In this document: one piece after another, positions 12,908-28,519 of the stretch | Layout: each line of letters opens with the position of its first letter | How positions within the stretch are numbered: the first letter of the stretch is position 1 | Source: Syntrophales bacterium | GTDB taxonomy: Bacteria > Desulfobacterota > Syntrophia > Syntrophales > PHBD01 | Assembly: GCA_963668175.1 (NCBI GenBank) | Contig: OY764159.1 | Location: 3,616,001 to 3,680,000, forward strand | DNA length: 64,000 bases | Direction: 5' to 3' | The notes under the pieces: generated by a model | Databases searched by the model: none | What the model was told of the DNA's origin: nothing | Seen by the model: the letters and a program-made list of their open reading frames with translations, nothing else | Translations under genes and position numbers: made by a program

Positions 12908-13354
12908 TTATTCCAATACATGCCCTTTCGTCTTTTCCAGGGAAATGATCCGCTGCCGTATTTCGTCGGGGATCGCCGCCTTCCGTTTTTCACGGTAATG
13001 GAAGGAGACGATTTCGCCGTCGCCCTCGGCAGCCGTCTTGCCGAGTTTCTTGCTCTCAACGAGATAGTGCATCGTGAAGCGGTCCGAACCCAAGCCCGTG
13101 ACCCGGGCCCCTACCAGGACCTCGTCGGGATAATTGAGCGGTATCCGGAACCGGCAGGCCGTGGATGCCAAAATCGGCCCGATTCCGGTCCTGTTCATCA
13201 AGTCGAGGACGTCCAGTTTTTCAAAATAGGCGATCCGGGCGCTTTCGAAATACCGGAAATAGACGATGTTGTTCACGTGCCCGAAAGCATCCATTTCACC
13301 CCAGACCACCGGCAGTTCGATCACGACGGGGTATCCGTCGATGGTTTCCGCCAT
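12908..13354 (-). CDS. Acyl-CoA thioesterase (hot-dog fold, YbgC/4HBT family)
   Basis: WGEMDAFGHVNN..YFRYFESAR motif. Confidence 0.92.
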   Translation of the reverse strand: MAETIDGYPVVIELPVVWGEMDAFGHVNNIVYFRYFESARIAYFEKLDVLDLMNRTGIGPILASTACRFRIPLNYPDEVLVGARVTGLGSDRFTMHYLVESKKLGKTAAEGDGEIVSFHYREKRKAAIPDEIRQRIISLEKTKGHVLE

Positions 13355-13400
13355 ATGTTTTCCCTCCTCATACAGAATTTTTCCGGGAATCCCCTCGGCC

Positions 13401-15359
13401 TCACGCCTCAGCCTGCAGGGACATCGTTGCCTTATATTCGCCGACGGGCATGAGGCGCCACTGATCCGCTCCTTTCAGATTCAGCACGACGTTATGGTAA
13501 TCGAGGATGCTGCTGCGATGGCCGACGCTGATATATTGGATGCCCAACTCTTTCAGTCTTCCATAAAGGTTGGCCTCGTTTTGCGTATCGAGGGCGCTGG
13601 TCGCTTCGTCCAGAACGGCATATTTCGGCCGGTTGACGAGCAGTCGGGCAAAGGCAAGCCGCTGCTGTTCGCCCAGGGAAAGCAAGTCGGCCCAGTCCAG
13701 CTCGACATCGAACCCGCCCACCCGTTCGGGCAGATCTTCCAGGTTGACCGTCTTCAGGACGCTTCGCAATTCCTCGTCGGATATCTGGCGCTCCAGGCGC
13801 GGATAGAGAAGTTGATCCCGGAGCGACCCCAGGAGCATGTATGGGCGCTGCGGCAGGAAGAATATGTCCGTAAGGGACGGACGGCGGATCACGCCTTCCC
13901 CCTGCGTCCAGAGACCGGCAATGGCCCGCAGCAGCGAGCTCTTACCGACGCCGCTCTGGCCGACTATCGCCAGATTCTGTCCCGGAGCGAGGCTCGCATC
14001 CAGATGATCGATCAGGATGCGGCTCTTGTTCGGTGTGGCCACGGCGACACCCTGGAGATCGAACCGTTCGGCGTCCTCCGATTGTATGCCGGGAGTCCTT
14101 TCCTTATCATCGGCCATCGCTTCGGCAAAAGACGACAATCTCTGGACGCCGGCGGCAAATCCTGTGATCTGTTCTATCTGCGAAACGATCAGCGACAGGG
14201 CTCCATAAACCTGCAGAAAAGCGAAATTCGCCTGCACCATGTCACCGTACTCGATCTTGCCGCTGAAGTACTCGGGGAAGAGGACGAGAAAAGGCAGCAC
14301 CACCGGAAGGTAGCTGTAAGCGGTCGTAAAAAAGGAAAGATTTCTCTGCCAGCCGATAAGCAGATTGAAGTTCCCGAGGACCTGGCGGAATCGTTCGCCG
14401 ATACGGGTGATCTCCGGCTTCTCACCCTGGTAGAAGGCAATCGATTCGGCATTGTCCCGCGCATGTACCAGGGAGTAACGGAAATCGGCCTCATAGCGGA
14501 GCTGGTTGAAATTCAGCCGGACCAGGCGCCGCCCTATAAGGACCGTGAGCCCCGTCCCGAAGAAGGAATATCCCAGGACGACGGCAACCAGAAGCGACGA
14601 TTTTGACCAGAGAATACCCGTGAAGGAGATGAGATCCATGAGCGATCCCAGGATGATCAGGAGGAACGACAGCGATATTTTTGTAAAAGTGCGGATATCC
14701 TCCATGATGCGCTGATCGGGGTTGTCGATATGGGATGTTGTCTCGATTTCGTAGTAATTGCGGTTACGGAAATAGCCGCTGAGGAATTCCCCGGTCAGCC
14801 ACTCGCGCCAGCGCATACCCAGGTAGTTCTGTACGTAACTATAGAAAGCGACAATCGGAATCCCGATGAGGAAACCGAAGAAATAGACGTAGACGAAAAG
14901 ATACGCCATGTCCTGGTTTTTCTTGACCAGGGCGTTGGAGAAATAATTGCCGATATAGCTGAAGGCAACGTTGATTCCCGTTACCGAAAGCGACAGGAGC
15001 AGAACGACGGCCAAAAGGGACCAGGCCCGCCAGCGCGTCTTGAGATGTCTGCGCAGGGCGATAAAGACTGCAACCGGCACAATGAGGAGCCCGGCGGCAA
15101 CAAGCCATAAGTCGGATTGAAAGATTTCATTAACCAGGGCCGAAAGCCCGGCGGCAACCTTGACAGTCAATTCCGGTGCAACGCTCGCCCCCGAAAGCGT
15201 CAGGGCCGAGACAACCATGAACAGGACGCCGAAGAGAAAGATGAGTAGCATCGCAAGAAGCAAAAGCGTCAACGCCCCTCCCCTCGGTATGTCGGGGAAG
15301 AAATAGGGTTGGGCGATCATCACGAAACGCCTCCAAAGGGAGCGCTCTTTCTGACTCAT
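13401..15359 (-). CDS. ABC transporter, fused permease/ATPase of the ABCD/YddA (ABC_membrane_2) family
   Basis: IDNPDQRI.ED, EADFRYSL..R.NAESIAFY.GE, GQSGVGKSSLLRAIAGLW, LPQRPY, LSLGEQQRLAFAR, LDEATSALD. Confidence 0.92.
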   Translation of the reverse strand: MSQKERSLWRRFVMIAQPYFFPDIPRGGALTLLLLAMLLIFLFGVLFMVVSALTLSGASVAPELTVKVAAGLSALVNEIFQSDLWLVAAGLLIVPVAVFIALRRHLKTRWRAWSLLAVVLLLSLSVTGINVAFSYIGNYFSNALVKKNQDMAYLFVYVYFFGFLIGIPIVAFYSYVQNYLGMRWREWLTGEFLSGYFRNRNYYEIETTSHIDNPDQRIMEDIRTFTKISLSFLLIILGSLMDLISFTGILWSKSSLLVAVVLGYSFFGTGLTVLIGRRLVRLNFNQLRYEADFRYSLVHARDNAESIAFYQGEKPEITRIGERFRQVLGNFNLLIGWQRNLSFFTTAYSYLPVVLPFLVLFPEYFSGKIEYGDMVQANFAFLQVYGALSLIVSQIEQITGFAAGVQRLSSFAEAMADDKERTPGIQSEDAERFDLQGVAVATPNKSRILIDHLDASLAPGQNLAIVGQSGVGKSSLLRAIAGLWTQGEGVIRRPSLTDIFFLPQRPYMLLGSLRDQLLYPRLERQISDEELRSVLKTVNLEDLPERVGGFDVELDWADLLSLGEQQRLAFARLLVNRPKYAVLDEATSALDTQNEANLYGRLKELGIQYISVGHRSSILDYHNVVLNLKGADQWRLMPVGEYKATMSLQAEA

Positions 15360-16151
15360 TGTTCAGGTATCCTTTCTTTCATCGTGTATAGAAAAGGTTA
15401 CGAATAAAGCCTTCTTTTCCTATAGATATGAAATTACCAATATTGAAACGGGTTGGCAAGGACAATCCGGGTATCCGGAGGAGTGCGTCGTGAACCGCCA
15501 TACCAGAAGCCATTGAAAACAATTCCGGTGATTAATCACTTCCGTTCGGCTCTGTTAATCGTCGCACGCACGCACTTCTGAGTAATTGACCGTCCATTCA
15601 TAACCATCATGACAATAGCAGACATTTAGTGCAGAGATGGGATCCAATATCGATCAATAGCCAGAGATCATTACAAAAGAAATGAGCTTTTTTGTACAAA
15701 ATATGATTTTTTTTCTTGCTATTTGTAAAATATTGTGATACACATGTCATCACGCTTCGTTTTATATCTTTTATATCAAGGCCCAGGAAGGATCGGATTG
15801 CTTATTATAACAACGGCATGTTTCTGCCTGTTTTAATAAAAGGGGAAAACAAAGGCTCTTCGAAAATCCAATTCGCCCGCTTCCGGGAACGGCTGCAATC
15901 CCCGGTATCTTCGCCCTCCCCCGATCATGTTGCAGCGCTTGTTATTCTCCACGAGTCACCTTCGCATAAGTCACGTTTTTGAGATCAGAAACACCGAGAG
16001 CCGGGCCGCTGCCTGCAGGTGCCAAACACGCATTTCAGCGACAGCCCGCTGACAGGAAATGCTGTCGGCTCTCATAGTGATTTACGAGGACAATCAACGC
16101 TTCGTCAAGAAGCACAGATAGTCCGCGCTGAAATCAAACCGGGAGGGCGAT

Positions 16152-18119
16152 ATGAGAAGAGAAGACAATCCGAACGTCATGCCTGCCACCTCCTCGCGCA
16201 TGCATGAAATGGGACTCAATCCCATCACGCTGGCATTTTCCGGTCCTCTGGAGGAGGCGTTTCTCGACGACTACTACAACAATTCCATGACTATGGTCAG
16301 GTTGTCGCTCTTTGCCGGGATCGTCTTGTACGGCCTGTTCGGAATCCTCGACGCAGAACTTGTCCCCACCATGAAATGGAAGCTCTGGTTCCTTCGTTTT
16401 GCCATCGTCTGGCCTGCCCTGATGGCCGTCATCCTCTGGTCCTACTATCCAAGTTTCAAGAGATTCTTTCAGCCTGCCGTTGCTTCGGTCATGCTCGTGG
16501 CGGGTTTTGCCATTATCATCATGATTCGCATCATTCCCCCGCCAATCAGTTATTCCTATTACGCCGGCCTCATCCTCGTCTTCATCTGGGGTTACTCCTT
16601 CACCCGCGTCAGGTTCCTGTGGGCGGCCTCCGCCGGATGGATCATCGTTATTTTTTACGAAATCGTTACCATGTCCACTGCAAACATTCCCCGGGGCGTT
16701 GTCATCAACAACAATTTCTTCTTCATCAGCGCCCAGATTATCGGTATGTTCGTCTGCTATTCCATCGAGTTCTATCAGAGGCGCGACTTCTTCCTGGCCT
16801 GGCAGCTCCAGAACGAGAAGGCCGTCATCATCGACGCCAACCGTCTGCTCGAATCCATCATTCAGGAGCGCACGTCCGAGCTGGTCAAAACGAACCAGGA
16901 TCTGCGCTCACAGATCGAAGAGCGCCAGCGGGCAGAAACGACGCGGAAGAACCTGGAATCGCAACTTCTGCAGGCGCAAAAAATGGAAGCCATGGGAACG
17001 CTGGCCGGGGGCATCGCCCACGACTTCAACAACCTCCTCATGGGCATCCAGGGGAATGTTTCCCTGATTCTCATGGATATGAGACGAGACCATCCCTATA
17101 ATGACAGATTAAGGAATGTTCAGGAACTTGTCCGCAGCGGTTCGCAATTGACCCATCAGCTCCTCGGATTCGCCCGCGCCGGCAAGTACGAAGTACAGCC
17201 TACGAATTTGAACGATCTCGTGAACCGCTGCAAAAACATGTACGGCCGGGCCAAGAAGGAAATCACCATTTATACGGATTTCCAGGACGACATCTGGACG
17301 GTCAACATAGACCAGGGCCAGATCGAACAGGTCCTGCTGAATCTTTTCGTCAATGCCTGGCAGGCCATGCCGGGCGGCGGGAACCTCTCGGTCGGAACGG
17401 AAAACATCACATTGACTCAAACCGAAGCGGACCGCATCGGCATCAAACCCGGCAGGCATGTCAAAATCATCGTCAGCGATACCGGCACCGGCATGGACCA
17501 GGCAACGATGAGCCGCATCTTCGATCCTTTTTTCACAACCAAGGGCATGGGCCGGGGCACCGGCCTGGGACTGGCGTCTGCATATGGCATCATCAAGAAC
17601 CACGAAGGCATCATCACGGTAAAGAGCAAGAAAGGCCAGGGCGCCACATTCGAAGTTTACATTCCGGCGTCGGACGTAGCGATGGGCAGAGACAAGGTCG
17701 TGCCTGTCCCTAAATTGCTTAAGGGAAACGAGACGATCCTGTTTGTCGACGACGAAGAGATGAACGTCGAGACCGGCCAGCGGATATTGGAGACGCTCGG
17801 TTACACCGTATTGACGGCCAGAAGCGGAAGGGAGGCCATCGAGGTTTTCAAGAAAAGCGACAGGGCCGTAACCCTGGTCATCCTCGACATGGTCATGCCG
17901 GGCATGAACGGCGGGGAGGTCTTCGATGCCCTGAAAAGCCTCGCCCCTTCGGTTAAAGTGCTTCTCTCGAGCGGCTACAGCATGACCGGCGAGGCGACAA
18001 ACATCATGGAAAGAGGTTGCGACGGCTTCATACAGAAGCCCTACGACGTCAACACGTTATCCGTCAAGATCAGAAATATTATGGACGGCTTCGGAAACGT
18101 CAAAAGAATGGTGGGCTGA
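16152..18119 (+). CDS. Membrane-bound hybrid histidine kinase with a 6-TM sensor (no periplasmic domain) and receiver
   Basis: About six closely spaced hydrophobic helices, coiled coil, GIAHDFNN H-box, [33 protein letters not shown] with LDMVMP. Confidence 0.93.
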
Positions 18120-18236
18120 CGAGGCCACCGGGAACATTCCGGCGGTCGCAGTTCATGAGTATGGGCGGCCGTCGGCGATCCGCATTCCCTTCAGAAAGGA
18201 GGTCATCCGGCAGCTTGCAACGCCGGAAAACGATCG

Positions 18237-19466
18237 ATGAACTCGAGCGCTAACGTACAGACGAACTACGACCATGGGGAACGCCCCGCTCACTTTCGGA
18301 TCGCCGTTGTCGCCCCGGCGAGAGAGGCCGGCGGCTTTATTTCTGCGGCGTTCAAGAAAGTGTTCGCAGAACTCGAAAGCGAGCATATCCAATTGTGGAA
18401 GAAATTGAACGCACTGCCTCTTCGGGAGGGTGACCTTGAAGAGAAGTTGTACGCGGAGATGCAGACATTCGAATCCTGGCGGCTGGACATCATGGGAACC
18501 TTGTGGGATATGGTGGCCGATTTCGACGACGAACAGAAGCGCGCCCATCAGGAGTACATCCGCAATACCCGTTATTTCCAAATCGTCCAGGAGGCCCCCT
18601 TTTATTGGCGAATCATCAACAAACCGAACGGCTATGCCGGCGACGCCTACATGATGCATTATATTTACCGAAACATGTTCGAGGGCGAGACGCCATTCGG
18701 CAAGTTTCTGCATAAGCATGCCTGCTCGACAATGGCCTGCGTCGCCGTGAGGAACCGTAGACGATTCCTGAAGAATCAGATACTGGAAAAGGCCGGGGGA
18801 AAGGTATTGAGTCTGGCGGCCGGTCCGGCCGAAGAGATATGGGATATCCTTGAGGTCGAAAACCTCGGCAAAAATTATCATTTCCTGGCCCTCGATCACG
18901 ACATTGAAACGGTCCAGCGGTTCAACTCGTCCAATCCGCATACCCGTTTTAAATATTGCCTGGCCAATGCCTTTCAGATCATCGGGGGAAATTACCGGAT
19001 CGCCAGGCCCCGGAGAATGATGGACAAGTTCTGCGTACCGGGAAGCGATTTCAAAGGCTGGCGGATCATGATCAGCGCCCTGAAATACGAATTCACCAAT
19101 CTCGCCTGCAGTGAATTCGATCTTGTTTACAGCGCCGGTCTTTTCGATTATATTAAGACGTTTCCTCTGGAAGACAGCAAAGGAAGCGTGGCCCTGACCA
19201 AGCGGCTGTTCGAACTGGTGAAGCCGGGCGGTTCGCTTATTGTAGGCAATTTCAGCCATAACAACCCGCGGGACCTCAAGTTCGTGATGGAATACATCTA
19301 TGGCTGGCATCTTATCTATCGCGGCCGGGACGAGATGACCCGATTCGCCAGATCCATTCCGCAAAACCAGATCGCCCGGATCGACGTTCTGGAAGAGGAG
19401 TCGGGAATCAACTATTTTCTCAAGATCGAAAAAGCAACGAACAAAGCCCTGCCGCTCAGAATCTGA
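18237..19466 (+). CDS. Class I SAM-dependent methyltransferase, PhcB-like (3-hydroxy fatty acid methyl ester synthase family)
   Basis: KP.GYAGD, AVRNRR, VLSLAAGPA.E (motif I), FDLVYSAGLFDY, L.PGG.L.VGNF...NP, ME...WHLIYR; motif order as I recall it for PhcB-family proteins. Confidence 0.75.
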   Translation: MNSSANVQTNYDHGERPAHFRIAVVAPAREAGGFISAAFKKVFAELESEHIQLWKKLNALPLREGDLEEKLYAEMQTFESWRLDIMGTLWDMVADFDDEQKRAHQEYIRNTRYFQIVQEAPFYWRIINKPNGYAGDAYMMHYIYRNMFEGETPFGKFLHKHACSTMACVAVRNRRRFLKNQILEKAGGKVLSLAAGPAEEIWDILEVENLGKNYHFLALDHDIETVQRFNSSNPHTRFKYCLANAFQIIGGNYRIARPRRMMDKFCVPGSDFKGWRIMISALKYEFTNLACSEFDLVYSAGLFDYIKTFPLEDSKGSVALTKRLFELVKPGGSLIVGNFSHNNPRDLKFVMEYIYGWHLIYRGRDEMTRFARSIPQNQIARIDVLEEESGINYFLKIEKATNKALPLRI

Positions 19467-19552
19467 AACGCCGTTTTGGCAGCATCCGTGATTCGATTCT
19501 TCTAGGCCGGCGAAAGGCCGTTCAGGTCAGGGAGACAGGATAAAGGGCACGG

Positions 19553-19792
19553 ATGGAACAACTCGCAAAACTGATGCGGATCAGGGAGGCAACCGATTTC
19601 ATCGTCAACGGGATGATGTCGGGATGTGTCCAGATGTCCGCCGCAGCCGGAGAGGCCTACAGGGAGATCGTCGATCAGTTCTATCATGAAAACAACGGGT
19701 TCATGACTCCGGAGCAATACCATTTATGTCGTTATAATTTTGTCAGTTTCCTATCCTGCATCGATGCCGCCATCGACCGGTGCCGGAACTAG
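19553..19792 (+). CDS. Small hypothetical protein (79 aa)
   Basis: ATG preceded by a purine-rich RBS-like stretch; helical, protein-like composition; co-oriented with the methyltransferase. Confidence 0.55.
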   Translation: MEQLAKLMRIREATDFIVNGMMSGCVQMSAAAGEAYREIVDQFYHENNGFMTPEQYHLCRYNFVSFLSCIDAAIDRCRN

Positions 19793-19920
19793 CGACCTTA
19801 AAGAAACATCCCCGGCAAATCTCCATTCATTACGGCAAGCGGTATCTTCTCCGGTTTTCAATTACTTCCGGCAAGAACCCTCCGTCTATGATCGTGCAAT
19901 ATGTTTCATGAAAACAAAAC

Positions 19921-19968
19921 GGAAACGGCCGGCCGGAAACAACTGCCCGGTTACAGCCGGCCATTTCC
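19921..19968. terminator. Inverted repeat between convergent genes (putative terminator)
   Basis: GGAAACGGCCGGC (19921-19933) / GCCGGCCATTTCC (19956-19968), 12 of 13 complementary. Confidence 0.45.
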
Positions 19969-19977
19969 CTTGAAGGT

Positions 19978-21918
19978 TTAAGATGCAAAGTCCTTAAAAT
20001 CGGCCGGTCCCTCTTCATCCGTTTTCCCGCCGAAGACGCGACCTTTTCCTGCGTTTCGTCCGGCCGTCGCCGGAAGCGCCAATCCGCCGGATACGTCCCT
20101 CCCCCGGATATGTTTCCTGTCCCGGATTGACATGCCGGTCTCGCGATCGGAAATCCCGTCACCATTGCCGCCGATCACGGAAGCGAGTTCGCGGACCACG
20201 TCTCTCATTGCCATGGCCTGTCCGTTCATTTCCTCGGACGCACTGGCCGATTCTTCCGCATTGGCCGCATTCTCCTGGACCACCCTGTTCATTTCCTGGA
20301 CGGCCCTGCTGACTTGTTCGATGCCTTCCGCCTGCTCCACGGAAGCGGCGGCAATCTCGCTGATCAGTTCGGCGACCTTGGCGGCGCTCTGCGCCACGTT
20401 CGCGAAATCTCCATTGGTCCTGTCGACCAGATCGGATCCGTCCTTGATCTTTTTGATCGTCCCTTCAATCAGGACGGACGTGCTCTTCGCCGCTTCCGCC
20501 GCCCGGATGGCCAGATTGCGGACTTCTTCCGCGACAACGGCGAAACCGGCCCCCGCTTCTCCCGCCCTGGCCGCCTCCACAGCGGCGTTGAGCGCGAGCA
20601 GATTGGTCTGGAAGGCGATCTCGTCAATCGTCTTGATAATCTTCGATGTGTCCTCGCTGGCCTGGGTTATATCTTCCATGGATCCGGTCAGGCTCTTCAT
20701 AGAATCGTTCGCCCGGGATACGACTTGCTTCGTCTCTTCCATCAGCTGATTGGCAGCCCCGGCGTTATCGGCGTTCTTCTTGGTCATGGATGCTATCTCT
20801 TCCAGCGACGATGACGTTTCCTCAATGGCGGACGCCTGCTCGGACGCACCCTCAGCGAGCCCCTGGCTGGCGGAAGCGACCTCCCCGGAGGCCGCCGCAA
20901 TCTGATCCGAACCGGCATTCAGCTTCCTGGAGGCCTGCTGAATCGGTCCGGCGATGGATCTGGCCATCATATAGGCCAACCCGATCGCCAGCAGGGCAAA
21001 GAATATAACGCCTCCGAATATGATGTTTCGGGTCATGCGGGCCGACTGGAGCATCTCGTCCACCGGCACGGCCGTGATGACGCACCAGCCGTTGATCTTT
21101 ACAGGGGCAAAACCGGCATACTTTTTGACCCCGTTATAAACATACTCTAGTACCCCCGTTTCGCCGGACAGGGCCTTTCGCATCACTTCCTCCATCCCCG
21201 CAACTTTGGAGAGGTTGAGCTGCAGAACTTGTTTGGCATCCGGGTATACGATCACCGTCCCGTCCTTGCCGACCATATAGACGTATCCCGTCTTGCCGAG
21301 CTTGATCTCATTGATTTTCTCGGCAAGAAAAGAGACTTTCATGAGACCCGATATCATACCGATCACCTGGCCGTTTTCATCCTTTACCGGATGGGTGATC
21401 GAACAGACGGGCTCGTTGTTCTTCTTGTTGAGGACGACAGAATCCATACTGGCGTTGCCCTGCATGGCCTTCTTGAAATAATCGCGGTCGCCGGCTTTGA
21501 GACCTTTGGCTGCACCGTTTACGCTGTCGGTAAAGACGAGGCCTTCTTTGCCCGCGAGAAAAATGAAATCGTACCGTCCTTTGGCGATGGACTGCAGTTT
21601 GGCCAGTTCTTTCTCCAGGAATGCAACCTTTTCGGAACTGCCGCCGGCATTGATTTCCTTGACGGCCTGAACCACGGCATCCCGCTGGGCAAGCATCGAT
21701 ATCGCGTTCGATTCAGAGGTCATGACGGTATCGACCATGTCCCCGATACTCTTCGAAATCATCAAAATCTGCTGCTCCGTCTCCTTCTCCATGCTCGACT
21801 TCGCGTTGTAAACGGCAATCGATCCGAGAATGATCACCGGGACGATGGCCATAAGACATCCTCCCATCACCAACTTTGCCTTCAATCCCCCAGTTTTGAA
21901 GGAAACACCACTGAACAT
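19978..21918 (-). CDS. Methyl-accepting chemotaxis protein with dCache sensor
   Basis: Two TM helices flanking a Cache domain ([17 protein letters not shown]); [42 protein letters not shown] before ATG 21918. Confidence 0.95.
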
Positions 21919-22006
21919 ATCAACCTCCTTGCTGCTCTTTTTTTCATAAAACCACACCACCTGCGGTGTTTATGATTCAGCATACAACAGCCTCCCGAGG
22001 AGACGC

Positions 22007-23461
22007 TCACGTCGGCCGATGGTTTGCCGCGATCGCCGACTGCCGTCTTTTTCCCGAAACGAGCACCGATAAATCGGCCACAAAGTCTTCCATCTGCTCC
22101 GCCTGGGCGCTTAACTCTTCGCTGGCGGATGCGGACGCTTCCGCATGGGCGACCGTTCCCTGCATCACCCTTTCCATCTCGGATACCGCCTTGTCGATCT
22201 GGCCGATGCCTTCTGCCTGTTCATTGGATGCCGCCGAAATTTCGTCGATGATGCCGCCTATCTTTGCGGATATCTCGACGTTTCCCTTAAAAGCTTCTTT
22301 CGTCTGATCCATGATCTGGCTGCTTTTCCTGGCTACCTGAATCGTGTTGTCGATCAGTCCCGCCGTGTTCCTCGCCGCCTCGGCTGCCCTCATGGCCAGA
22401 TTGCGGACCTCGTCGGCTACGACGGCGAATCCGGCACCGGCTTCTCCGGCACGGGCCGCTTCCACCGCCGCATTCAACGCCAGCAGATTCGTTTGAAAGG
22501 CGATCTCGTCGATCGTCTTGATGATCTTGCCCGTCTCTTCACTGGTCCTGGTTACTTCGCTTACCGCTTTTGCCATGTTGTCCATGTGCATACTGACGCG
22601 GTCGACTATTTCCCTGGCTTCCGCCATGTGCGTCTTGGCTTGATCGGCGCTCGCGGCATTACGCTTGGTCATAGACGCCATTTCCGCGAGGGATGAGGAC
22701 GTCTCTTCGACGGAGGACGCCTGCTCCGAGGCCCCTTGTGCCAGCACCTGGCTCGAAGAGGCCATCTTGCCGGAAGCTGAAGCGACATGCCCCGCACCCG
22801 CGGCCAACCCCTTTATAACGCGATGGATCGGTTTGGTAATCGACCGGACGATCACGATGCCCAGAATAAATACGATGACAAGGCCGGAAACGCCGAAGAT
22901 CAGGACCTTGATCATGATCTCATAGACCACCCGGTCATAATGCGTATTGGGTACGCCGACATAGAAGATGCCGATGACCTCGCCCCGGCTGTTCTTGATT
23001 GGCTCATATGCCGTTTGATACCAGGTACCGACCACATTGGCCTTCCCGATGTACGGCTGTCCCTTCTTGATCACGGCGTCGACGATATTCTCTGCAGCCT
23101 TGGTCCCGACGGCCCGCTCGCCCGAACTATTCTTTACGGTTGTAGCTATTCGCATATCGCCCTGGAAAATGGTGACGGCATCGTTCGACATTGCGGCAAT
23201 GTTGTCCACTGCCGCGAAGTTATCGTTCATCCGGACATCGCCCTTGAATAATTTTCCCTCCTTCACCGACCATTCCCCGGGATACCGGTCGTTCAGCACC
23301 GCGTAACTCAACGCCATATCGCTTCTTAACTTTTCATGGGCCGTGACGATGATCTTGTCGCGGACCGTCATGACGGTGAACAGGATCATGCACGTGAACA
23401 CAATCGCAAACAGAACGAGTAACATGAGAGCTTTTGTCTGAAACTTAAGATTGGAAAACAT
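22007..23461 (-). CDS. Methyl-accepting chemotaxis protein with Cache_3-type sensor
   Basis: TIFQGD.RIATTV...GERAVGT, Y.TAYEPI motifs; MCP signalling hairpin; start placed at ATG 23461. Confidence 0.93.
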
Positions 23462-24302
23462 ATTCACCCCTCCCGATCCTCTTTTCTTTATGGCATCCGG
23501 CGTAAAATACACCGGTTCCCCTCCATTCCGGACGGCGAAAGATTTTCTGACGAGCTTTTGCTGCGGCCTACTGTTTTCGACCGACCGTTCATGCGGCAGA
23601 CCACGGACCGATACCCGCAAGAACGGATTTTGCCGAAGAAAAGGACCGTTCCTTTTACCGCGCTCAATCATCAGTTTCGAATATATTGTAATCCTTTGGA
23701 TATTGCTTTGCGCAGGGCGGACGTGACATAACGGTCATCGTCAGCATCTAAATAGGCGACGACGAAACGACCCATTGTTTAACGAAGGAAATGTTTCGGG
23801 AAATGGGTTACCTGAATTTATGATGGGCTGAGATTGAGGTTCTAACCGAGGTTAATACCGCATCAAACGGCGGCCTCCCGGATTCTTTGGATATCCTCTA
23901 TTTAATGATGTCAGAACAATCCTGTTAAAAATCCCCCCTGACAGTACGCTTTCCTCATTAAAATCGAGAAAACATATCTGTACAGTTACAATCTCATTTT
24001 ATCAATGATTACTGATATTTCCCATATATAAACATCAAACTATCGTCGCCTTGGCGGTATTATAGAGCAAATACACTCTGAGTACAATACGAAATATTCC
24101 ATAAAATAGGATTAAAAATATAATCTGTTTAAGCCTGTGATGTATGTTAATAGTATTATTAGATTTACAACGGTGGCATTGGAAACGGCTGGTTCTTTCG
24201 GTGATCGAGAACATCGGCGGCAGGCATGGTGCAGGAGAAAGAATCGTTCATAATCGCGGGCATCTTCTTCGGATGGCGTTTATATTTCAAGACGTACGAT
24301 GG

Positions 24303-24338
24303 TCGGGTGGACCCGATCTTTCAAAAGGGTCCACCCGA
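24303..24338. repeat. Perfect 12-bp inverted repeat (terminator- or REP-like hairpin)
   Basis: TCGGGTGGACCC - 12 nt - GGGTCCACCCGA, about 120 nt downstream of the MCP stop at 24456. Confidence 0.6.
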
Positions 24339-24455
24339 ACCATGAAGGCGTCTCTAGCCAAAACGGCGGAAACAATAGAATGCCCCGGCAAACGGGCACA
24401 TAATTCAGACGCATACGAATGAGATCATAACGCATCTGTCTCAGGCGTTTACGAT

Positions 24456-26381
24456 CTAATATTTCTTAAACTCCTTGTCGTCCATCGGCAGTATGTCTTG
24501 TTTTGATCCTATTACAGAAGCCCGCAACCTTGAGCCCTCTCTGCTGAAAAAAGGATTACCGCTTCCCGCACCGTCATCCTGAGTAATTGAAGCTCCGTGC
24601 CGGGCGGAACCGGGCACCGATACGTTGCCTTTCATTGTGCCGCTGACAATACCATTGAGATTGAAGATGAGGCCGCGCATCATCTCCGCCTGGGCATTGG
24701 TCTGTTCAGAGGAGCTGGCAAGCTCTTCGGCATTGGCCGCATTCTGCTGCACAACCTTATCCATCTCTGCCACGGCCTTGTTGACCTGATTGATGCCTTC
24801 GGCCTGTTCGGTATTGGCCGCCGAGATCTCGCCCACCAGATCGGCAACCTTGGCGGATCTGTCGGCTACATCCAGGAAATCCTTATTCGTCCTGTTCACC
24901 AATTCGGTTCCTTCTTTAATCTTCTTGACCGTATCCTCGATCAGTCCCGCCGTGTTCTTGGCTGCTTCGGCAGCCCGAATGGCTAGATTGCGAACTTCTT
25001 CAGCGACGACTGCAAAGCCGGCTCCGGCTTCTCCCGCACGAGCGGCCTCTACCGCTGCGTTCAGGGCCAGCAGGTTGGTTTGAAAGGCGATCTCGTCGAT
25101 AGTCTTGATGATTTTCGACGTCTCTTCACTGGCCATTGCGATATCATTCATCGATTTGGTCAGGGTCTGCATGGATTCGTCGGCCCGCCCCACGACCTTC
25201 TTCACTTCACCCATCATTGCGTTGGCCTGAACGGCGTTCTCGGCATTCAGCCTGGTCATGGACGACATTTCCTCCAGAGACGACGATGTCTCCTCGATCG
25301 CCGCCGCCTGCTCCGAAGCCCCTTCGGCCATGGACTGGCTGGCCGTCGAAACCTCCGTTGACGCCGTAGCAATCTGATGAGCTGCTTCAGTGAGTTCCCT
25401 GACAATGCCGGCAACCGGTTTGCTGATACTCCGGGAGAAAAAGACGACGACAACCAGCGTGACGACGAGAAAGGCACAACCGAGAATAAGAATGAAATTC
25501 CTTATCATATGGGCCGGCGCCAGAAATTCGTTCGAGTCTTGTGTAACGGCAACCCGCCAGTTGGTGAGATCGACGGCCGCATATCCGCAAATCTTGTGAA
25601 CACCCTTAAATATGTAATCGTCCACACCGCTCTTTCCGCCGAGCATCCTGGATACGAACTCCTTCATACCGTCCAGTCCGGCGATATTCAATTCCAGGAT
25701 AAATTCCTTTTTCGGATGAGCGATAACGAGCCCCGTTTTGTCCACAATAAAAGGATATCCCGTTTTACCGATCTTAAGCGACGCGATCTTTTCGTTAAGG
25801 AAGTCCATTTTCAGCACCAGTGCCACGATCCCGACAAAATTCCCGGATTCCGCATATATCGGACAGACTACGGGAACCACGGGATTACCCGTCGCTTTCG
25901 ATTTGACGGCGGTGCCTACGTTGGCTTTGCCGGCTTTGGCGTCCTTGAAGTAATCGCGGTCCGCGAAGGACATTCCCCTGTACTTGCCGCCCACTCCGTC
26001 TACAAACGCCACGCCGTTGGCATCCGTCACAAATATGCCTTCATAATCGCTGCCGACTTTTTTCATCATCGCCGCAAGATCGGCCGCTTGCCTGGCAAGC
26101 TGGCCGTCGGCTTCTCCGGATCTGCCCGCCGTTACCGCGGCGGCAACCGCAACGATGTCATTCTTTACAGCCAGAGAATTTACCAGTTTGATCTCTTCCA
26201 GAAAAATCGTCTGAACGGAAGCGGCCAGTTCATTGGCGATATGAGCCGCTTGTTCCGTAGCAGCGTTCATCAGGGCCTTCTCCGATTTAAACGCCGAGAA
26301 GGCACCGACCACCAGGAGGGGAACCAAAACGGCCAAGACCCCGCCCAGTGTCATCTTGAAATTCAATGATCTTTCCTTCAT
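24456..26381 (-). CDS. Methyl-accepting chemotaxis protein with dCache sensor
   Basis: TM-Cache (DRDYFKDA, SKATG.PV, GKTGYPF)-TM; MCP signalling hairpin; C-terminal EFKKY. Confidence 0.95.
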   Translation of the reverse strand: MKERSLNFKMTLGGVLAVLVPLLVVGAFSAFKSEKALMNAATEQAAHIANELAASVQTIFLEEIKLVNSLAVKNDIVAVAAAVTAGRSGEADGQLARQAADLAAMMKKVGSDYEGIFVTDANGVAFVDGVGGKYRGMSFADRDYFKDAKAGKANVGTAVKSKATGNPVVPVVCPIYAESGNFVGIVALVLKMDFLNEKIASLKIGKTGYPFIVDKTGLVIAHPKKEFILELNIAGLDGMKEFVSRMLGGKSGVDDYIFKGVHKICGYAAVDLTNWRVAVTQDSNEFLAPAHMIRNFILILGCAFLVVTLVVVVFFSRSISKPVAGIVRELTEAAHQIATASTEVSTASQSMAEGASEQAAAIEETSSSLEEMSSMTRLNAENAVQANAMMGEVKKVVGRADESMQTLTKSMNDIAMASEETSKIIKTIDEIAFQTNLLALNAAVEAARAGEAGAGFAVVAEEVRNLAIRAAEAAKNTAGLIEDTVKKIKEGTELVNRTNKDFLDVADRSAKVADLVGEISAANTEQAEGINQVNKAVAEMDKVVQQNAANAEELASSSEQTNAQAEMMRGLIFNLNGIVSGTMKGNVSVPGSARHGASITQDDGAGSGNPFFSREGSRLRASVIGSKQDILPMDDKEFKKY

Positions 26382-26523
26382 CGCTCTTCCTCTCCCCCTT
26401 TTTATTTTGTATATTCCAGGATAGGGATCATCGCCCCTTCCATTGCTCCGATCGGCACATAGGAAGCACCGTTCGGCAGATGCGTTTCCGTCCGGGACCG
26501 GCCTTTCGAACCGGCGCCCAAGG

Positions 26524-26536
26524 CCCCCCCCCCCCC
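26524..26536. repeat. C13 homopolymer tract (G13 on the MCP sense strand)
   Basis: 13 consecutive C about 145 nt upstream of the MCP start at 26381. Confidence 0.8.
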
Positions 26537-27004
26537 GAAGCCTTTCGCACTTTATCCTGTTCCGGACCGGTTTATTCAGTCTGCCTGCGAGGCATCATTG
26601 CCGCTTCTCCCCCGGTCATGTACAAATATACCCGTTTCAGCGACGGACCGGTTCAAGGAAGGTCGGCCAGTCTTCTAGTGAAAGCGAAAGACAAATCAAA
26701 TCGAAAACAAAATCTCGGCAGAACGGCTTTGATCCTCAAGAAAAGCACACGGCGGTTCCGGCATCCCTGAGTCTCAGTCCTGTTTGTGAATATACTGATC
26801 AAGCCTCCGGGCTCCCCGATGGAAACAGCAGCCTTCTCCTCCGGGCCTCATGGCAAATAACATCCTCACAGGAGACGCGGAAAAACCGGATGCTCACAGT
26901 ATTATGGTAAGTTGATTATTCTTTGGATGAATGAACGATATTAAAAATGTTTCTTGGGGTCAATACAGAATCTTGATAGAGATAATACAGAGGAGAAATA
27001 CATA

Positions 27005-28519
27005 CTAGCCAAGGGTGAGGAGGTAGGAGCGCAGATTCTTGTTTTGCTTCCTTAAGTTGAGTTTTTTACGGATATTGTTCCGGTGAGTGTTGATGGTGCC
27101 GACGGATGCGTTCAATACCTCTGCGATGTCTTTCGACGCCCTGCCTTGTTTGATCATTTCCGCCACCCGGATTTCGGTAGGAGTCAAATTTCTGTATACC
27201 GCCGATATATTCTGGATGAAGGGTGAAACGATGTCGTTCAGATTGGCCTCCAGAAGCGTCAGATAATCATGATACTTGCCGTTGAGACCCGCCTGCTTGA
27301 GCTTTTCCAGATAGGGAACGACAAGCTCTTCTATGTTGACCTGTAGTCTCTCTTCCAGTTTCTTGTTGTCTTCGGTCTGTCGATTGAGAAGCACCCGCAG
27401 GGCAACGTTGGCTTCTTCCAAATCCTTATTGGCTTTCTCCAGTTCGGAGGTCCTCTCATCCGGGTGCTGCTCCACCTTATCGCGGGCGGCAAGCAGGGCG
27501 CTTTCCTTCATCCTGATTCCGGTGGCATCCCTGAAAATGCCCTGGATGATCATGTGCCCCTTGAATTCGATGGCGGTTCCGGTAATGTCTACGGGTATTT
27601 TTCTGCCATCCTTTGTCAGTATGAAGGTCGCCGTGACCGTTTGCCGACCGTTACTGGCCAATCCCTGGAATACGTTCCATATTTTATCCCATTCTTCCGG
27701 CGGATGAATCCGGGAGATGTGGCTGCCGACGATCTCTTCGATGGTATATCCGAAGAGCTCCTCTGCTTTGCGATTGGCCTCCAGCAGATTCCCCTTCTCG
27801 TCGGCCGTCAGAATCGCATCGTCCGCATTGTTAAGCAAAGACTGGTATTTTTCCTCCGACTGTCTCAGGATTTGTTCCAGACTCCGGCTGTCCACCGGTT
27901 CGGCATGCCGCCGGGCGTTGCTTGTGGTCATATCGTTCACCCGATATCCTGCTGAAGACTCCTGGCCTTGGCGATATGGACGGGTGTTCGCTTCTGATTT
28001 CCGCTGTGCAGTGACATCCTGCATATTCATGACCAAAGCTGATATGACCGCATTATCCGCCATATTCATGCCGATGCCTTCGAGAAAACGTTCCGAACCA
28101 TCCTTATGACTCATGGTGAAGGCATGGGAAAACGCTTCACCTTCCTTCGCGAGAATGGCCTCGTTGAAATCATGCATGGCCCGGGGGATCTCCGATGTCA
28201 CAATATAATCGAAAATGCGGCGTCCGATCAGGTCCTCCGGCTTATAACCGAGAGAACGCTCCACGGAGGGACTTGCATAGGTGATCGTGCCCGATTTGTC
28301 TGCCGCTAGGATGATGTCCCGGCCGGTCTCTGTGATAACCCTGAACAGTTCCTCGACCCGGCGCAGGGAGGAGATAATTTGCCTGAGATGGACATCCGAC
28401 GCCTTCAGTTTTGCGTTTTCCGCACGGAGGGCAGACGATTCGTCAGACTGATTAACGGGCTTCTCGGGATCGATCTCTTTTTCCATTCGCATGATTCCTG
28501 TCGATTTATATGACGTCAC
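27005..28519 (-). CDS. PAS-domain LuxR-family transcriptional regulator
   Basis: Two PAS domains, coiled coil (LEEANVALRVLL), C-terminal LTPTE..VA..I..G..SKDIA.....S..T..THR.NIRKKL; true start may be ATG 28492 or 28486. Confidence 0.92.
   Translation of the reverse strand: MTSYKSTGIMRMEKEIDPEKPVNQSDESSALRAENAKLKASDVHLRQIISSLRRVEELFRVITETGRDIILAADKSGTITYASPSVERSLGYKPEDLIGRRIFDYIVTSEIPRAMHDFNEAILAKEGEAFSHAFTMSHKDGSERFLEGIGMNMADNAVISALVMNMQDVTAQRKSEANTRPYRQGQESSAGYRVNDMTTSNARRHAEPVDSRSLEQILRQSEEKYQSLLNNADDAILTADEKGNLLEANRKAEELFGYTIEEIVGSHISRIHPPEEWDKIWNVFQGLASNGRQTVTATFILTKDGRKIPVDITGTAIEFKGHMIIQGIFRDATGIRMKESALLAARDKVEQHPDERTSELEKANKDLEEANVALRVLLNRQTEDNKKLEERLQVNIEELVVPYLEKLKQAGLNGKYHDYLTLLEANLNDIVSPFIQNISAVYRNLTPTEIRVAEMIKQGRASKDIAEVLNASVGTINTHRNNIRKKLNLRKQNKNLRSYLLTLG

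Follow-up and report, generated by a model that had tools for sequence, protein, structure and literature searches.

In the Phc system of Ralstonia, the methyltransferase PhcB is described as making, and the sensor kinase PhcS as sensing, the 3-hydroxy fatty acid methyl esters methyl 3-hydroxypalmitate and methyl 3-hydroxymyristate (3-OH PAME/MAME) (PMC11298618, PMC8578825). The characterised PhcB product is presented as a secreted signal (PMC7694676, PMC11960443), and a review of 2024 describes Phc as a 'unique' system belonging to the Ralstonia complex (PMC11298618). A linked synthase and six-transmembrane (6TM) kinase for a lipophilic signal is also the design of the alpha-hydroxyketone systems CqsA/CqsS of Vibrio and LqsA/LqsS of Legionella, which are compared here by design only (PMC4821796). 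The present analysis concerns a gene pair of similar architecture in Syntrophales bacterium (assembly GCA_963668175.1, contig OY764159.1, positions 3,616,001 to 3,680,000 of the forward strand; this whole stretch of 64,000 nucleotides is termed the window), in which a hybrid sensor histidine kinase gene is followed by a gene for an S-adenosylmethionine (SAM)-dependent methyltransferase.

The locus probably encodes a Phc-type pair, one protein making a diffusible methylated lipid and the other sensing it, since both partners have homologues in a proven pair and since synteny and natural gene fusions connect them; the fold of the 6TM domain, shared with adenylyl cyclase anchors and ImcA, also speaks for this reading. 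A prior sequence-only reading had proposed such a pair from a kinase gene and a co-oriented methyltransferase gene, followed by a 79-aa open reading frame (ORF), and the positions of the three ORFs, their common strand and the gap of 117 nt between kinase and methyltransferase were confirmed; a further 86 nt separate the methyltransferase from the third, 79-aa ORF (Table 1).

The methyltransferase belongs to the PhcB family

Reference loci of Ralstonia were fetched with a published phcB primer (PMC5481312, Table 2), which gave 18 matches, 13 of them in Ralstonia genomes, none of which is the strain used for PhcB biochemistry. Each of the 13 loci carries a methyltransferase of 464-470 aa followed by a kinase, with receiver genes behind them read in two loci, and the kinase of the R. 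syzygii locus has His230 and Leu161, the residues named for PhcS (PMC11960443, PMC6989110). An enzyme profile built from non-Ralstonia relatives, from which the Ralstonia sequences were held out, matched all 13 Ralstonia PhcB ORFs at E 6e-64 to 9e-59, and the next methyltransferase of the window genome scored only 1e-4 with the same profile. The comparison of the enzyme group with the PhcB group by hhalign gave 99.7%. The six motifs on which the assignment had been based are all present and all have counterparts in a Ralstonia PhcB. Two of them, KP.GY[AP]GD and Y[SCT]AGL[FY]DY, each occur in only 2 of the 15,328 six-frame ORFs of the genome, which equals the number of family members found there by the profile (the window gene and one paralogue). 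By these homology searches the 409-aa protein is a PhcB-family member, as had been suspected.

With 3,225 clusters at 50% identity (E<=1e-30), the family is a large one; the close named homologues of the window enzyme come from Deltaproteobacteria, Desulfobacterales and Desulfatitalea, a protein of Desulfatitalea alkaliphila being 58% identical. Gly196 of motif I and Asp220, the acidic residue after strand 2, are invariant in 101 sequences. The structure model (predicted local distance difference test, pLDDT, 90.2) has a class I methyltransferase fold with a helical N-terminal part; residues 1-31 are predicted to be disordered, and its best structural matches are mostly small-molecule methyltransferases. 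The nearest named relatives of the enzyme core are 3ocj (Z 20.0, rmsd 2.8, 245 aligned) and Methyltransf_20 (PF12147), both long-branch outliers in the tree; the latter, a hydrolase-fused family with the 'YnbC-type' label, is the nearest Pfam family at E 0.045, far below its cut-off. Searches of Pfam, NCBIfam and PDB sequences gave no identification of the enzyme, and no NCBIfam model was matched by Ralstonia PhcB itself at 1e-5. Matches to L,D-transpeptidases in the sequence search were rejected as noise (E>=0.05).

Two features of the polypeptide set it apart. The profile-defined core starts at residue 69, in contrast to residue 160-162 in PhcB, so that the N-terminal extension of about 160 residues of PhcB is missing, and no PilZ, cyclic-nucleotide-binding (cNMP) or PhcB-type N-terminal domain was found in the 409-aa enzyme; PilZ or cNMP-binding domains occur on many other enzymes of the family. 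In addition, an insertion of about 35 residues, modelled as two strands and short helices, is specific to the clade of the enzyme and may be an element of substrate specificity.

The sensor domain is of the PhcS type and shares the adenylyl cyclase anchor fold

The kinase is composed of the 6TM input, a coiled coil, HisKA with the phosphoacceptor position His290, HATPase_c and a receiver domain (REC) with Asp579. No PAS, HAMP, periplasmic or other Pfam domain was found in a Pfam scan, and the AlphaFold model of the input domain (pLDDT 92.8) shows helices packed into a tight bundle, joined by short loops, which superposes on solved hexahelical membrane domains, bearing out the claim that some six packed transmembrane helices are the sole input. 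As in PhcS, the coiled coil and HisKA come directly after the 6TM domain. The catalytic part is CckA-like, with a score below all curated cut-offs shown.

For the likeness to PhcS, a 6TM profile was iterated on non-Ralstonia loci only and then tested on the Ralstonia PhcS ORFs. It matched 13/13 of them (E 2e-27 to 1e-22), with alignments covering almost the full domain, and it picked out only 2 of 15,328 ORFs of the window genome at E<=1. Residues D67, R82, M124, Y136, G139 and a Phe of TM6 are conserved across 31 aligned sequences including PhcS. Judged by this held-out test, the 6TM input is distantly homologous to the sensor domain of PhcS, in line with the earlier comparison of the two kinases.

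The fold search with the 6TM model returned the membrane domains of the Pseudomonas diguanylate cyclase ImcA (8wcn; Z 18.4, rmsd 2.1, 192 aligned) and of adenylyl cyclases AC9 (6r3q; Z 17.0, rmsd 2.4, 186 aligned) and AC5 (8sl3; Z 16.6, rmsd 2.4, 193 aligned), the next row being at Z 12.2, and Foldseek agreed. These domains have the same fold as the 6TM input at 13-17% identity; unlike them, the input here has a kinase output and a candidate ligand synthase encoded next door. The MASE8 model (PF20968) gave no match to the window kinase at E<=0.1 and matched 7 of the 31 alignment members at that threshold (best 1.5e-5), and Atlas neighbours of the 6TM domain carry MASE8, 7, 6, 11 or 2 in 11-61% of members. 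According to PMC12414865, fatty acids are proposed to bind the membrane domains of mammalian cyclases as ligands, and the binding site is yet to be mapped. The CqsS sensor, which has the same 6TM design, is described as conferring lipophilic-ligand control on a cyclase (PMC4821796, PMC12414865); PhcS is not mentioned in PMC4821796.

Enzyme and candidate receptor are kept together

The survey of the order found the family enzyme in 32/301 genomes. Among 17 other enzyme loci of the close clade (55-68% identity), the kinase or a piece of it lies directly upstream in 16, which span 15 genomes of 7 families, the single exception being the paralogue of the window genome itself. The 6TM-kinase-receiver gene is intact in 13 of these 16, split in one, cut by a contig end in one and without its kinase part in one. 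Ten metagenome loci showed the kinase in all 7 that had enough upstream DNA, two of them near-identical copies.

The pairing extends through the phylum. In a sample of 401 genomes, a single-sequence search found the enzyme in 39 genomes and the profile found the 6TM domain in 66, and in 29 of the 39 a co-oriented 6TM gene lies no more than 3 kb away, where chance adjacency would be about 0.2% per genome. The synteny that the sequence-only reading had left to be checked is thus conserved in the close clade and beyond it. A profile search for the enzyme in the 32 genomes with only the 6TM domain added four genomes, all with an adjacent pair, which brings the count to 33/43 in 15 of 20 families; this figure leans towards pairing, because in the 330 double-negative genomes only the single-sequence search was used to look for the enzyme, and it includes a Methyltransf_20-type enzyme (G258) and a fragment (G343) that are not in the 29/39. 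The 6TM profile itself included sequences from 18 positive genomes, and kin among the genomes are not independent; among genomes outside the profile, 15/25 are paired (11/21 without the follow-up search). The methyltransferase gene comes first in 28 paired genomes and the 6TM gene in five.

What stands behind the 6TM domain varies, with kinase, PAS-kinase, GGDEF, GGDEF-EAL and PP2C outputs, and the link to the enzyme persists. In genus g18 the two are joined in single ORFs of the order 6TM-PAS-GGDEF-methyltransferase (L068:6625-9183, L191:6130-9117 and L192:5436-8015). The receptors paired with the clade of the window enzyme form one clade (Shimodaira-Hasegawa-like approximate likelihood ratio test, SH-aLRT, 98) that includes the orphan kinase of the window genome; more widely, receptors of this subtype occur beside enzymes from several different methyltransferase clades. 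Receptor and enzyme distances within the clade are correlated (rho 0.68, 0/2000 permutations), to which shared ancestry may contribute. The enzyme-receptor pair is kept together across many anaerobe lineages.

The window genome holds two enzymes and two receptors in total, one pair linked and one split. The second family methyltransferase (G000:C1:4472144-4473505, +) is 59% identical to the window enzyme and lies inside a cluster of ketoacyl synthase (KAS), AMP-ligase, hotdog-like, FabG and radical-SAM genes; the second 6TM hybrid kinase (G000:C1:1072724-1074745, -) is unlinked and belongs to the same receptor clade. In other g18 genomes the two genes are separate, several of them beside a ligase-hotdog-FabG cluster. 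That the paralogue and the g18 pairs sit at such clusters, in these two lineages only, hints at an acyl substrate.

Relation to Phc and weighing of the functional readings

The likeness to Ralstonia Phc lies in the PhcB-family core with its six motifs, in the succession of 6TM domain, coiled coil and HisKA, and in the adjacency of co-oriented genes. The differences are these: here the kinase comes first, in contrast to the order phcB-phcS; the kinase is a hybrid with REC, which PhcS lacks; the enzyme lacks the long N-terminal extension, has the insertion and falls into a separate clade; and the host is apparently an anaerobe. No phcR or phcQ was found at the locus, where only the 79-aa ORF and a convergent chemotaxis gene follow the enzyme, and the best PhcR match of the genome (26% over 412 columns) and its best PhcQ match (receiver domain only) lie elsewhere. 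Because of the separate clade, the reversed order, the hybrid kinase, the lack of PhcR/PhcQ and the lack of the PhcB N-terminal extension, the locus is, as far as gene content and phylogeny tell, not an orthologous phcBSRQ operon, whose final output is the LysR regulator PhcA. The CqsA and LqsA synthases differ in kind, being pyridoxal phosphate-dependent aminotransferase-like enzymes and not methyltransferases.

In the mechanism proposed here, the enzyme would use SAM to methylate the carboxyl group of an acyl compound that arises as an intermediate in fatty-acid metabolism, and the resulting methyl ester would be neutral and able to cross membranes. The ester would partition into the inner membrane and bind in the six-helix bundle, perhaps near the conserved D67, R82 and Y136, and binding, relayed by TM6 and the coiled coil, would alter the balance of kinase and phosphatase activity at His290. 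Phosphate would then pass to the kinase's own receiver at Asp579 and on to an unlinked partner, and the pair would report cell density or confinement if the ester escapes and accumulates. As for the product, a 3-hydroxy ester as in Ralstonia is plausible although short of probable, and another acyl or lipid ester is a possibility of slightly lower standing.

A number of observations weigh against the synthase-receptor reading. On the enzyme side, identity to a Ralstonia PhcB is low (24% over 337 columns, pairwise E 1e-20), and the clade of the enzyme and that of Ralstonia/Paraburkholderia PhcB are separate among several deep clades (SH-aLRT 99-100 each) in quick trees without bootstrap, one of 84 rows and a second of 54 rows after removal of 30 long-branch or near-duplicate rows; forcing the two clades together in the quick 54-row tree lowered the log-likelihood by 16.2 (approximately unbiased test, p-AU 0.065), so that a sister-group relation is neither supported nor rejected. 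The expectation that the enzyme would cluster with PhcB therefore held for the family and failed for the betaproteobacterial clade, and by its phylogenetic position the enzyme is a PhcB-family member and not a demonstrated orthologue of betaproteobacterial PhcB, which leaves room for a product other than a 3-hydroxy fatty acid methyl ester. On the receptor side, the 6TM domain is only 17-20% identical to the PhcS sensor domain, and a direct hhalign comparison of the clade's 6TM domains with the PhcS-type ones is weak (probability 5.8%, E 0.0065, end to end), with the consequence that the homology to PhcS rests on intermediate sequences; the closest solved 6TM relative, ImcA, is a diguanylate cyclase. 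The pairing, too, is incomplete. It is patchy in the order (15 other genomes of 300), and in the phylum sample 10/43 enzyme genomes have no adjacent 6TM gene, 49/86 6TM domains are not beside a methyltransferase and 28/66 6TM genomes show no family methyltransferase. The nearest sister subclade (44-47% identity) had a 6TM gene in 0/5 fetched stretches, one of which has only 88 nt upstream, and among 18 enzyme-positive genomes of a Pseudomonadota sample of 301, a 6TM neighbour was clear in five, weak in three and not detectable in several.

The alternative that survives best, although unlikely, is that the methylated lipid stays in the membrane of its producer, the 6TM kinase reading from it the state of the acyl chains or of SAM or, in relatives with a fused PilZ or cNMP domain, a second messenger acting upstream. 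Receptor-synthase fusions in three genomes, the PilZ and cNMP-binding domains on many family enzymes and the paralogue inside a fatty-acid-synthase-like cluster would all suit such self-sensing, as would the lack of any exporter gene adjoining the pair among the listed loci; the last point loses weight in that neutral methyl esters need no exporter. Its main difficulty is the characterised member of the family, whose product is described as secreted (PMC7694676, PMC11960443).

It is quite unlikely that the enzyme performs lipid or metabolite tailoring under the control of the adjoining kinase, with no ligand-receptor relation between the two. Unpaired family members exist, the paralogue and short-type g18 pairs sit at the ligase-hotdog-FabG cluster, and one 6TM gene (L131) stands beside a more distant Methyltransf_20 enzyme, all of which regulated tailoring would accommodate; however, it is the sensor domain and not the output domain that travels with the enzyme, and the two proteins have their homologues in a pair already proven to act as synthase and receptor. 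Modification of the receptor itself by the enzyme, or quenching of a signal by methylation, as in a CheR-like adaptation or quenching module, is very unlikely. Tight linkage and fusion would fit a modifying enzyme as well, and three genes for methyl-accepting chemotaxis proteins (MCPs) lie next door, but none of the relatives' loci probed or listed showed an MCP gene adjoining the pair, the characterised member of the family is a small-molecule synthase, and most of the top structural matches are small-molecule methyltransferases. Chance adjacency of two unrelated genes, for which the abundance of kinase genes and the unlinked second copy of each gene in the same genome might be cited, is refuted by the synteny counts (16/17 close loci, 15/20 families, three fusions) and is hardly credible.

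Genomic context, accessory genes and variant loci

Table 1. Features of the locus in window coordinates
Feature	Position	Strand	Basis
Hybrid sensor histidine kinase, 655 aa	16152..18119	+	ORF; Pfam HisKA, HATPase_c, Response_reg
Hexahelical membrane sensor domain, PhcS-type (kinase residues 28-222)	16233..16817	+	Held-out profile, alignment, fold search
PhcB-family class I SAM-dependent methyltransferase, 409 aa	18237..19466	+	Identity, held-out profile, hhalign, structure model
Clade-specific insertion of methyltransferase, ~35 residues (approx. residues 253-287)	18993..19097	+	Alignment columns about 226-260
79-aa protein, no known family	19553..19792	+	Homologues, third-position bias

The host had been taken for an anaerobe, and its gene content supports this, because dsrAB (with dsrA above the curated cut-off) and two [FeFe]-hydrogenase matches are present and a search of the genome for a heme-copper oxidase (COX1), whose controls worked, found none. 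LuxI was likewise not found in the genome, a negative that carries no weight, since the control genomes gave no match either. Contigs of sequencing run X1, possibly the source sample, are identical to the window over 15500-17027 and 17014-20200, and other runs gave only short pieces of relatives over the region.

Scans of the locus for promoters and terminators, a repeat search and Rfam gave nothing convincing. Within 18195-18253 (+) of the window, the kinase-enzyme gap contains a strong Shine-Dalgarno-like sequence, AAAGGAGG, which has no in-frame enzyme start at the usual spacing, the enzyme ATG itself being without a clear Shine-Dalgarno sequence; a 12-codon frame starting with TTG (18215-18253) overlaps that ATG.

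The 79-aa ORF named in the sequence-only reading as following the enzyme is present and is a real, though accessory, gene: differences from the copy in L040 fall on 38 third, 20 first and 14 second positions. Seven homologues at 61-85% identity were found, none with a function name, and no Pfam family matched. The gene follows the enzyme in L040, and phmmer gave no match for it in the other loci that were searched, which confines it to the closest sub-lineage and places it outside the conserved module.

On the reverse strand, three tandem MCP genes and a PAS-PAS-LuxR gene (window 19978-28519) converge on the locus; the listed relatives did not show these genes at the pair. Upstream of the kinase and divergent from it lie a fused ABC transporter gene and a 4HBT thioesterase gene (window 12908-15359, -), the transporter having as its best NCBIfam match a peroxisomal long-chain fatty acyl transporter, below cut-off. 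The transporter and thioesterase would fit an acyl signal, a suggestive association at most; they were left out of the module because neither turned up near the pair in L007, L008 and L040-L048, the loci examined for them.

Other arrangements were seen among the relatives. In four close-clade loci (L165:7339-8991, L167, L169:3397-5034 and L170) a receiver protein is convergent to the pair, and the two that were scanned are HisKA-REC-adenylate/guanylate cyclases, candidates for a cAMP output; no full-length counterpart was found in the window genome. At L080:678-4542, L079 and L181, genes for a 6TM-PP2C phosphatase and for another 6TM protein come after that of the methyltransferase, and small genes upstream in L080 weakly match SiaC and slr1658/slr1659-like proteins, so loci of this type possibly wire a Sia-like partner switch to a Phc-type receptor. 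Family methyltransferases with a long N-terminus (L069-L074, family f64) lie among housekeeping genes with no 6TM gene nearby; the one scanned has a PilZ match, and 4/6 of these genomes have a 6TM gene elsewhere. Rhizobial-type family methyltransferases (L117, L121, L125 and L134) are transcribed divergently from a GGDEF-EAL gene; the N-terminal part of its product gives weak matches to the 6TM profile, in three loci at E about 1e-5 to 1e-6. Decayed or mis-assembled copies also occur, with the kinase split after the 6TM domain in L164, the kinase part missing in L180 and the methyltransferase in pieces in L193.

Significance

No literature on PhcB/PhcS homologues in Desulfobacterota was found, in a search outside which most subscription journals lie, and two papers on signalling in anaerobic digestion and syntrophs discuss acyl-homoserine lactones, autoinducer-2 or cyclic di-GMP and never PAME, phc or methyl esters (PMC12892806, PMC10787695). 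The surprise is limited, as a PhcB-type product name already stands on 15/120 of the closest homologues in Joint Genome Institute (JGI) records. New here are a defined anaerobe clade with reversed gene order, a held-out test of receptor homology, the link in fold to the membrane anchors of adenylyl cyclases and the natural receptor-synthase fusions.

More broadly, and tentatively, anaerobic Desulfobacterota of this order might signal with a structurally new lipid methyl ester, of which the ligase/KAS/FabG cluster is a possible builder and which would be read by an adenylyl-cyclase-type hexahelical receptor. In the course of evolution this receptor would have been connected to kinases, diguanylate cyclases and phosphatases and even joined with its synthase in one protein, Ralstonia Phc being one offshoot of a large family. 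If this is true, the pairs would be natural ligand-receptor couples for the adenylyl cyclase membrane fold. Since the sensor shares the adenylyl cyclase anchor fold, for which no ligand site is mapped in the account of PMC12414865, a 6TM receptor with its synthase next door offers a tractable route to the ligand and the binding site of that fold. Partner aggregation matters in sediments and digesters, and a PhcB/PhcS-type pair in dsr-bearing anaerobes is a testable candidate for a further class of signal in these habitats.

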